In this document: positions 23,522 through 24,220 of the stretch, piece by piece
How the letters are laid out: every line of letters starts with the position of its first letter
How positions within the stretch are numbered: the stretch's first letter is position 1
Virus record (IMG/VR): IMGVR_UViG_2531839531_000013
Coordinates: 1 to 36,622 of that record
Length of the DNA stretch: 36,622 nt
Direction: 5' to 3' (one strand)
From: a virus
Taxonomy: Duplodnaviria; Heunggongvirae; Uroviricota; Caudoviricetes
Notes under the pieces: generated by a model
Seen by the model: only the letters and a program-made list of their open reading frames with translations
Database searches by the model: none
What the model was told of the DNA's origin: nothing
Translations under genes and position numbers: made by a program

Positions 23522-24220
23522 TTATTTGTTTCTTCTTTGTTCACGCCTTGTCTTGGCTTCGATAAGGCGTTGAGGTTCAGTGTAAAGCCGTTCTAAAAAA
23601 AGATAGGTAAAATCTTCAAGATCCTCAGCAGCAGCTTTATCCAAAATACCTTCATGCGCTCCATCATTTCCGTCATCTTTAACGCATTCAGCTAGTTCCC
23701 TTAAAGCTTCAGGCAGTAGATGATTATCAAATAACCACTCCATTCTTAACCCTAGGCTTCTCCTTATTTTTTGCGCAGGCCCTTGCTCCCCATCAGGAAG
23801 AAGTCCTTTTGTGGCATAATCAAGGCAAAGCCTAAACATGGTTGCTGCTGCATTATAACAACCTATAGCCAAACATTTCGCCCCTTCCTCATATGCACTA
23901 TTGATATGCTCAGGTAAGAACTCTGGTGGCTCCTCTACTGCTAAGTCTGCCGGTGATATAGGCCTAACAACCTCTGCAACTTCCTTTAAGCCGAATATTC
24001 CACTTTCCCAATTATAGCCATCTAAAGTTTTATTTTTCGTTAAAGGTCTGCAAAGAAACATTGTCGTTTTATGACACTCTCGGCAAACACAATAGACCTC
24101 GTATTCGTATGTTTTACCCCCGCCCAATGCATTGTAAACCCTAGTGCAATTCAGCCCATTAACATCAAACGCTATTTTTTGTGATCCACATCGTGGACAG
24201 TCATCCACTAACATAACCAT
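23522..24220 (-). CDS. Cargo protein: N-terminal zinc ribbon plus DUF4145-like C-terminal domain
   Basis: CPRCG...CVCRECH zinc ribbon; C-terminal pattern ...CYNAAATMFRLCLDY...IRRSLGL...DDGNDGAHEG resembles DUF4145 by eye; strong GGGAGGAG Shine-Dalgarno; AT-rich; sits between Q and cos. Confidence 0.55.
   Translation of the reverse strand: MVMLVDDCPRCGSQKIAFDVNGLNCTRVYNALGGGKTYEYEVYCVCRECHKTTMFLCRPLTKNKTLDGYNWESGIFGLKEVAEVVRPISPADLAVEEPPEFLPEHINSAYEEGAKCLAIGCYNAAATMFRLCLDYATKGLLPDGEQGPAQKIRRSLGLRMEWLFDNHLLPEALRELAECVKDDGNDGAHEGILDKAAAEDLEDFTYLFLERLYTEPQRLIEAKTRREQRRNK

Follow-up and report, generated by a model that had tools for sequence, protein, structure and literature searches.

A prophage-borne zinc-ribbon and HEPN (DUF4145) gene between Q and cos of a P2-like phage: a probable defence gene distantly related to RAZR

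Introduction

Among described anti-phage systems, the closest counterpart of the gene reported here is RAZR, which was first recovered in a functional selection as PD-T7-4 (PMC9519451) and has since been renamed; it comes from E. coli UMB1727 and is represented by PDB entry 9Y9C (Zhang 2026, Nature; PMC13017515). RAZR joins an N-terminal Cys4 zinc finger through a conserved linker to a DUF4145/HEPN RNase domain; residues R146 and H154 are essential, and the alanine mutant of R146 no longer confers defence (PMC13017515). The resting protein forms linear oligomers. Upon infection, 24 copies assemble around phage rings of ~170 Å, and the triggers reported are the portals of T7, T3 and SECphi18 and the Erf-like recombinase Gp77 of SECphi27 (PMC13017515). 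Once triggered, RAZR cleaves single-stranded RNA, which leads to translation arrest and abortive infection (PMC13017515). Variation within RAZR is greatest in the zinc-finger domain, which determines specificity (PMC13017515).

Other validated defence proteins carry comparable domains. The BREX-associated protein BxaP and the anti-plasmid protein Ishtar1 both contain DUF4145, which belongs to the HEPN clan; in these proteins the domain is N-terminal, is followed by HEAT-like or beta-rich C-terminal domains, and is not accompanied by a Cys4 ribbon. The E. coli defence protein DS-38 (WP_001313577.1; DefensePredictor) combines HEPN with zinc fingers.

The interval between gpA and gpQ of P2 is a published defence hotspot (PMC9122126; PMC9519451), the “hotspot #1” of Vassallo 2022. 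In P2 itself, the cargo genes old and tin occupy the A side of cos, in a setting that is low in GC, adjacent to cos and exchangeable, whereas the Q side is non-coding in both P2 and 186. The annotation of P2 places cosL at 1-19, the terminator tQ at 160-181 and Q at 187-1221, and that of 186 places cos at 1-19, tW at 164-187 and W at 196-1218, leaving ~170-190 bp between cos and Q or W. In Table S5 of Rousset 2022, protein WP_000245245 is listed as “DUF4145” in several arrangements of the gpA-gpQ locus, and the table of tested systems in the same work holds no DUF4145 entry (PMC9122126).

Here we consider a gene found at this place in a P2-like (Fels-2/186-type) prophage, the 36,622-bp sequence of IMG/VR record IMGVR_UViG_2531839531_000013 (positions 1 to 36,622), hereafter the window. 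Our proposal is that it serves anti-phage defence as a single prophage-borne gene of the zinc-ribbon plus HEPN (DUF4145) type, a distant sister of RAZR that is carried as exchangeable cargo of the hotspot and transcribed in the lysogen; we regard this reading as probable, with clear reservations about some of its parts. Earlier publications already cover its domain annotation, the hotspot and how its distant relative RAZR works, and the exact protein is catalogued.

Results

An earlier note, made from the letters of the window alone, had described an AT-rich gene of 232 codons between the portal gene Q and cos, headed by a strong ribosome-binding site and running convergently to Q, at a spot where P2 has only a short non-coding stretch. 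Each element of this description holds (Table 1), the last of them by the annotations of both P2 and 186. The stop codons of Q and of the DUF4145 gene are separated by 8 bp (TTCCGAAC, 23514-23521), and GC content falls to 0.416 in the DUF4145 gene, against 0.519 in Q and 0.551 in the structural block. The 19-mer that we take as the cos core of the window (GGCGTGGCGGGGATACGAG) is also present within the putative cos stretch annotated in Escherichia phage Cartapus; the corresponding cores of P2 and 186 are GGCGAGGCGGGGAAAGCAC and GGCGTGGCGGGGAAAGCAT, respectively. A scan of the coding strand from cos to the ATG returned no sigma-70 consensus reaching threshold. Between Q and the DUF4145 gene, the interval scanned for terminators yielded none at threshold, and a hairpin at ~23542-23572 is not followed by a T-run. 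The terminator-like hairpin on the A side of cos would, by its position and strand, shield the DUF4145 gene from transcription arriving from upstream.

Table 1. Position of the DUF4145 gene, its parts and its surroundings in the window.
Feature	Position	Strand	Basis or remark
Terminase P	20713-22479	+	
Portal gene Q, left anchor of the slot	22476-23513	+	Pfam Phage_portal, E=9.7e-19; RefSeq annotation
Exchangeable cassette	23496-24323	.	blastn against TIR-carrying prophage
CDS of the 232-aa zinc-ribbon plus DUF4145/HEPN protein	23522-24220	-	ORF with ATG start
DUF4145/HEPN domain (aa 111-215)	23576-23890	-	Pfam match; most conserved region
Putative active-site motif K181-DDGNDGA-H189	23654-23680	-	K181, G184, N185, D186, G187, A188 and H189 invariant in close relatives
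Pro-rich linker (aa 88-110)	23891-23959	-	Conserved D92, P98, P99, P103, I106
Hypervariable segment (aa 57-87)	23960-24052	-	Highest column entropy in the protein, 2.8-3.3 bits
N-terminal Cys4 zinc ribbon, putative sensor (aa 1-56)	24053-24220	-	C8, C11, C46, C49
Shine-Dalgarno sequence GGGAGGAG	24229-24236	-	8 nt before the ATG; read from the sequence
AT-rich leader from cos to the gene, presumed site of its own promoter	24237-24330	-	
cos core GGCGTGGCGGGGATACGAG	24331-24349	-	Pattern match; 111 bp upstream of the ATG
Terminator-like hairpin, A side of cos	24399-24418	-	8 bp, 7 of them G-C, then a T-run
Replication gene A	25960-28374	-	
Integrase	31807-32823	+	

The window gene thus lies between A and Q and next to cos, which is the location that defines the hotspot. 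Among 5426 complete E. coli genomes, 43 carry the DUF4145 gene at the place between Q and cos, and these 43 belong to the ~1259 genomes that match its flanks (the Q end or the cos region). Elsewhere the Q side of the slot is filled by a TIR gene (strain 1002W03), by a DUF262 gene or by a gene for a hypothetical protein of 463 aa (strain HS), and in all three cases cos is found just past the cargo gene; in a further prophage the genes of retron Ec78 stand directly beside Q, with no cos core in the stretch examined. When the window is compared by blastn with a TIR-bearing prophage, similarity ends at 23495 and restarts at 24324, which delimits a cassette of 828 bp with sharp boundaries. On the far side of cos, the window departs from Cartapus after ~100 bp, carrying an HNH gene where Cartapus has gp46/gp47, and the two sides of cos have therefore been assorted independently. 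The contrast with P2 drawn in the earlier note is right, and holds for 186 too, the slot being empty in both, but it does not extend to natural E. coli P2-like prophages, in which the slot is commonly occupied. For a hotspot already known for prophage defence genes, the DUF4145 gene is unremarkable cargo; it shares the setting of old and tin and differs from them in lying on the Q side of cos.

The encoded protein matches gp01 of Cartapus, which resides as a prophage in E. coli LF82, at 100% identity, and is likewise identical to RefSeq WP_000245245.1, which bears the label “DUF4145 domain-containing protein”. Pfam assigns DUF4145 (PF13643) to residues 114-203 with E=4.5e-7 and 30.3 bits, above the gathering cut-off of 23.1. 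Over its full length the protein matches phrog_1305 (“DNA binding protein”, E=9.5e-53) in PHROGs; NCBIfam returned no match, and the sole match in PADLOC was PD-T7-4 (26.1 bits, E=1.2e-6). Homology to a structural or packaging protein was sought in Pfam, NCBIfam, PHROGs and the PDB, and none was found.

We aligned the protein with 41 close homologues and, separately, with 39 more distant ones, 29 of which also match the PD-T7-4 model. C8, C11, C46 and C49 are invariant in both alignments, a pattern that fits a Cys4 zinc ribbon, and the loop between the two cysteine pairs is variable. Together with the Pfam score, these cysteines bear out the zinc ribbon plus DUF4145 that had been read from the letters. 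The homologue alignments further show a conserved block C-V-K-D-D-G-N-D-G-A-H-x-G at residues 179-191, and R130 and E112 are invariant. A structure model computed from the single sequence had a mean pLDDT of 39.4 and was unusable.

Several comparisons bear on the relation to RAZR. Searches of the PDB with the single sequence (phmmer) and with the narrow profile missed 9Y9C and gave no relevant match; the broad profile built from the more distant homologues retrieved the RAZR chain of 9Y9C at E=0.0016. With BLASTP, 128 residues can be aligned to a RAZR homologue at 26% identity. Alignment of the window family with a family of 38 RAZR sequences by hhalign yields a probability of 97.25% and E=2.8e-11 over 175 columns at 19% identity, and it spans both the zinc ribbon and the HEPN domain, with both CxxC motifs paired: C8, C11, C46 and C49 stand opposite C16, C19, C49 and C52 of RAZR, and the Pro-rich linker is aligned with RAZR residues 64-90, which comprise the linker and the start of HEPN. 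Judged by these profile comparisons, the homology is real and full-length, but remote. Both proteins are single chains of ~220-230 aa in which a Cys4 ribbon is followed by a Pro-rich linker and, at the C-terminus, by DUF4145/HEPN. They also share a GN..(A/V)H block with its histidine (H154 in RAZR, H189 here), a hypervariable zinc-ribbon module joined to a conserved HEPN domain, the lack of a partner gene, and carriage by mobile elements. The earlier note had seen in this architecture the kind found in defence or abortive-infection proteins, and the DUF4145 domain, the PADLOC match to PD-T7-4, the hhalign result and the location in the hotspot all support that view; its remark that the function is unknown no longer fully applies, given that a distant relative now has a worked-out mechanism.

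The differences are nevertheless substantial. The PD-T7-4 model of PADLOC gives a bona fide RAZR homologue 339 bits (E=2.2e-102), against 26.1 bits for the window protein, and identity between RAZR and the window protein is 19-26%. Following the zinc ribbon, the window protein has a variable segment of ~30 aa (residues 57-87) that falls opposite a gap in RAZR in the hhalign alignment. The dimer-dimer salt bridge of RAZR (D179/D180/R184) is not conserved in the window family at the sequence level, which allows for a different interface: a 4-residue gap takes the place of D179 and D180, the invariant E215 stands opposite R184, and S13 is the counterpart of V21. Nor do the zinc-ribbon loops of the window family share any sequence with the residues by which RAZR contacts its triggers (R29/Y31/R35/T41/E43). 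RAZR homologues also typically overlap an integrase gene (PMC9519451), whereas the window gene adjoins the portal gene of its own phage in a P2-like prophage.

A further difference concerns the presumed active site. The essential R146 of RAZR is replaced in the window protein by K181, with H189 opposite H154, so that the spacing R-x7-H of RAZR becomes K-x7-H. The Rx4-6H motif of the HEPN superfamily (Pfam clan CL0291) is consequently absent from the window protein; the HEPN motif is conserved in only ~80% of DUF4145 members (Anantharaman 2013). Among 266 relatives of the window protein, the position equivalent to R146 is occupied by K in 165, R in 73, Q in 6 and H in 3, in contrast to RAZR homologues, which have R in 120 of 120. 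Because of the low model score, the lysine at position 181, the additional variable segment and the missing oligomer contacts, we would place the window family, as far as sequence comparison allows, as a distant sister family of RAZR and not within RAZR proper.

Of the other validated proteins, BxaP and Ishtar1 share the Pfam effector domain with the window protein, and DS-38 shares its combination of HEPN and zinc fingers. We considered whether the window protein might be DS-38 and can rule this out, since DS-38 has 366 aa, carries its HEPN domain at the N-terminus and a multi-zinc-finger array at the C-terminus, and falls outside the family.

A full HMMER scan recovered 927 cluster representatives of the window family at the 50%-identity level (E<=1e-3), and a scan of one genome per species gave 134 relatives, distributed over the Gamma- and Betaproteobacteria, Nitrospirota, Verrucomicrobiota, Planctomycetota, Omnitrophota and others. 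A P2-like portal gene adjoins five of the 80 loci of relatives that were retrieved. In the remaining 75 non-P2 loci we looked for a conserved partner gene, as would be expected of a toxin-antitoxin or two-gene system, and found none: the ~460 ORFs in the neighbourhood sort into 419 clusters, with the P2 portal and terminase as the sole recurrent ones. The Pfam families of the immediate neighbours are heterogeneous, with the defence-type families N6_Mtase, TIR_2 and Mrr_cat appearing twice each. A solitary gene among such mixed neighbours fits a mobile single-gene system.

On the viral contigs of IMG/VR, the association with P2-like phages is much closer. Counting the 74 loci with enough downstream sequence, the gene runs convergently to a P2-like portal gene less than 200 bp away in 47; these portal-adjacent alleles show 49-100% identity and the adjoining portals 62-100%. 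A cos core lies 85-314 bp upstream of the gene in 41 of 44 loci, which keep the spacing of ~110 bp from cos to ATG. The family is therefore a long-standing, recurrent occupant of the Q-cos slot in the Peduoviridae. Within these P2-like contigs, the N-terminal 87 aa drop to as little as 22-40% identity, whereas residues 88-232 remain at 66-81%, and the contrast persists even beside portals that are ~88% identical, where N-terminal regions of 100%, 57% and 37% identity are met with. Column entropies show the same combination of a variable N-terminus and a conserved HEPN domain in the window family and in the RAZR family. By analogy with RAZR, the best-supported reading of this pattern is one of sensor and effector, in which the fast-evolving zinc ribbon would act as the sensor and DUF4145 as the effector.

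Evidence for expression comes from LF82. Positions 23512-24381 of the window and 1-870 of Cartapus differ at 3 sites, 2 of them upstream of the gene and 1 silent within it, and the entry CARTA_1 in the published LF82 RNA-seq table is the identical protein (PMC9928086). On the log2(fpkm+5) scale, CARTA_1 reads 4.65/4.71 in stationary LB, stands at 7.0-7.6 in samples B1/B6 and reaches 9.2-9.6 in macrophages; in the same table, the adjacent portal gene has 2.45-3.07 and the terminase ~2.3-2.7, a background level (PMC9928086). With CARTA_1 raised and portal and terminase at background, transcription of the gene in the lysogen does not depend on the late operon. In LB, CARTA_1 stands ~3-fold over the prophage background, which is below the 5-fold cut-off that the paper sets for morons (PMC9928086). 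The rise of CARTA_1 parallels that of the early-region genes upstream of cos, and hence part of it may be due to read-through or shared regulation.

Discussion

We suggest that the window gene acts in a manner related to that of RAZR. By homology, the protein would be harmless in the resting state. When another phage infects the lysogen, the hypervariable N-terminal zinc-ribbon module would bind a protein of that phage, by analogy with RAZR most likely one that assembles into a large oligomeric ring, for instance a portal or an Erf-like recombinase. The HEPN dimers would thereby be repositioned into an active RNase, which would cleave single-stranded RNA, stop translation and thereby abort the infection. 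The parts of this proposal are not equally secure. That the protein has defence activity at all we consider likely. RNase activity with lysine in the place of the HEPN arginine is on balance to be expected, with somewhat less assurance, and catalysis is not assured given that K, R, Q and H all occur at the position equivalent to R146 across the family. Activation on a ring template is the part that we put forward most tentatively and think rather doubtful, since the oligomer contacts of RAZR are not conserved.

This last point leads to the most serious alternative, namely that the protein is indeed a HEPN RNase of defence but responds to a different kind of trigger, either a nucleic acid or some non-ring-forming protein, so that no templating on a structure of ~170 Å would be involved. 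The oligomer-interface residues not kept from RAZR, the extra variable segment of ~30 aa behind the zinc ribbon, and zinc-ribbon loops that have nothing in common with the trigger contacts of RAZR would all be expected under this alternative, and BxaP, Ishtar and DS-38 show HEPN paired with other domains and presumably with other triggers. Yet the order of the domains, the spacing of the four cysteines, the linker and the HEPN domain can all be aligned with RAZR over its full length, and the combination of a hypervariable ribbon with a conserved HEPN domain mirrors what is seen there. We thus regard a trigger of this other kind as unlikely.

We would also make the distinction between a HEPN domain with an altered active site and one that is catalytically dead. 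In the latter case, the lysine in place of arginine would mark a nucleic-acid-binding or regulatory moron, or a decoy that shields the phage from RAZR-like systems of the host. The replacement by K181 of precisely the residue whose alanine mutant cost RAZR its defence, and the label “DNA binding protein” of phrog_1305, could be taken in this sense. However, the GNDGAH block as a whole, with H189 and N185, shows little or no variation, and R130 and E112 are invariant; lysine and arginine interchange across the family, as expected of a functional cationic residue; and the lysine type is common in non-phage chromosomal contexts of many phyla and is therefore not a phage-specific inactivation. For the PHROG label, we found no experimental basis. 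A dead HEPN domain accordingly strikes us as highly improbable.

Least credible of all is that the gene serves the phage cycle as a packaging, cos or portal accessory factor: the portal-convergent position and the upstream cos core in the IMG/VR loci would be explained by such a role, but P2 and 186 lack the gene, most E. coli genomes with matching flanks do not have it, unrelated genes take its place in the same slot, most of its relatives are in non-phage contexts, its transcription goes on with the late genes silent, and its product resembles no packaging protein in Pfam, NCBIfam or PHROGs. We reject a packaging or structural role on the grounds of this absence from P2 and 186, the patchy distribution and the lack of a matching protein family.

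If the proposed defence gene is active, the principle of RAZR, in which a zinc-ribbon sensor commands a HEPN RNase, would extend to a large sister family that spans many phyla and that, with its 927 representatives at 50%-identity clustering, is not called by current defence finders. The lysine in place of arginine makes its active site a natural test case that can be probed directly. Moreover, the ladder of zinc-ribbon alleles that occupies one fixed slot in near-identical P2-like phages is well suited to mapping the residues that determine trigger specificity. If the protein is inactive, it is one more uncharacterised cargo gene of a well-known hotspot.

If a phage carries a defence protein that senses rings, the question also arises of how the phage would tolerate its own portal. 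It is conceivable, although we consider it quite improbable, that the protein senses portal-sized rings even though its own phage builds a dodecameric portal from a gene 8 bp away, and that the conserved layout of cos, gene and convergent Q, kept among alleles of 49-100% identity with no intervening terminator, is itself functional. Late transcription through P and Q would then run antisense to the gene and help to silence it in the lytic cycle, and the ribbon would ignore the resident portal and recognise those of competitors, providing a built-in solution to the problem of self and non-self.

More distant phage-borne proteins of phrog_1305 are found at other genome positions. They include gp20 of the Shigella/Stx phage POCJ13 and gp55 of Burkholderia phage phi644-2, at 25-32% identity to the window protein, and POCJ13 gp20 has a Ren-like exclusion gene and a RelE toxin as neighbours.

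Predicted transcription across the putative defence gene

In phages P2 and 186 the portal gene is followed by a terminator (tQ and tW, respectively), which has no counterpart in the window, where nothing terminator-like was found on the + strand between the Q stop codon and cos (23514-24330). As judged from the sequence, late transcripts of the terminase and portal genes (P-Q) would thus cross the putative defence gene, which encodes the zinc-ribbon and DUF4145 (HEPN) protein, in antisense.

Relatives and neighbours around cos

On the A side of cos, that of the replication gene, the cargo is an HNH-motif protein (WP_000207842; E=2.5e-111 to its phrog family; gene GC 0.38), which has no convincing family match in PADLOC and is present in published arrangements of the P2 hotspot (Rousset Table S5; PMC9122126). 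The DinI-like and small phrog_698 genes are common to most sampled hotspot arrangements, and look like conserved backbone rather than cargo.

We note that the prophage of E. coli 1002W03 carries, across cos from its TIR gene, a different DUF4145 protein (WP_000215882, 246 aa). It shares 22% identity with the window protein in the HEPN part and no detectable similarity in the zinc-ribbon region, and, like the window protein, it weakly matches PD-T7-4, the PADLOC model for RAZR. A further relative of the window protein occurs in Stx-type lambdoid phages, where in Shigella phage POCJ13 it adjoins genes for a Ren-like exclusion protein and a RelE/ParE toxin; this neighbourhood is another region rich in morons.

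Features of the window and of related phages
Feature	Location	Strand	Remarks
Retron-type reverse transcriptase, 257 aa	511-1284	-	Pfam RVT_1; PADLOC RT_VI
HNH-motif protein WP_000207842, 239 aa	24532-25251	-	phrog_6544
DinI-like gene; small phrog_698 gene	25374-25679; 25618-25908	both -	between A and variable cargo
dCTP-deaminase-type protein, 578 aa	33202-34938	-	PADLOC dCTP-deaminase defence model; Pfam dCMP_cyt_deam_1
Second integrase, P4-type	35381-36622	+	after dCTP-deaminase-type gene; truncated by window end
TIR-domain protein in Q-cos slot; DUF4145 protein on opposite cos side	E. coli 1002W03 prophage, 4336-5136; 5507-6247
Window-protein relative, 25% identity	Shigella phage POCJ13, 3040-3714

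The ends of the window

The prophage integrase immediately precedes the dCTP-deaminase-type gene, whose product matches the PADLOC defence model at E=2.9e-145 and also contains the Pfam deaminase domain; the gene is very AT-rich (GC 0.33). Together with the P4-type integrase, it probably constitutes a separate defence islet or satellite. The reverse transcriptase (RVT_1, E=1.8e-21; RT_VI as top PADLOC model) is encoded near the prophage's D/ogr end, within the second P2 hotspot region, and is short by the standards of retron reverse transcriptases.
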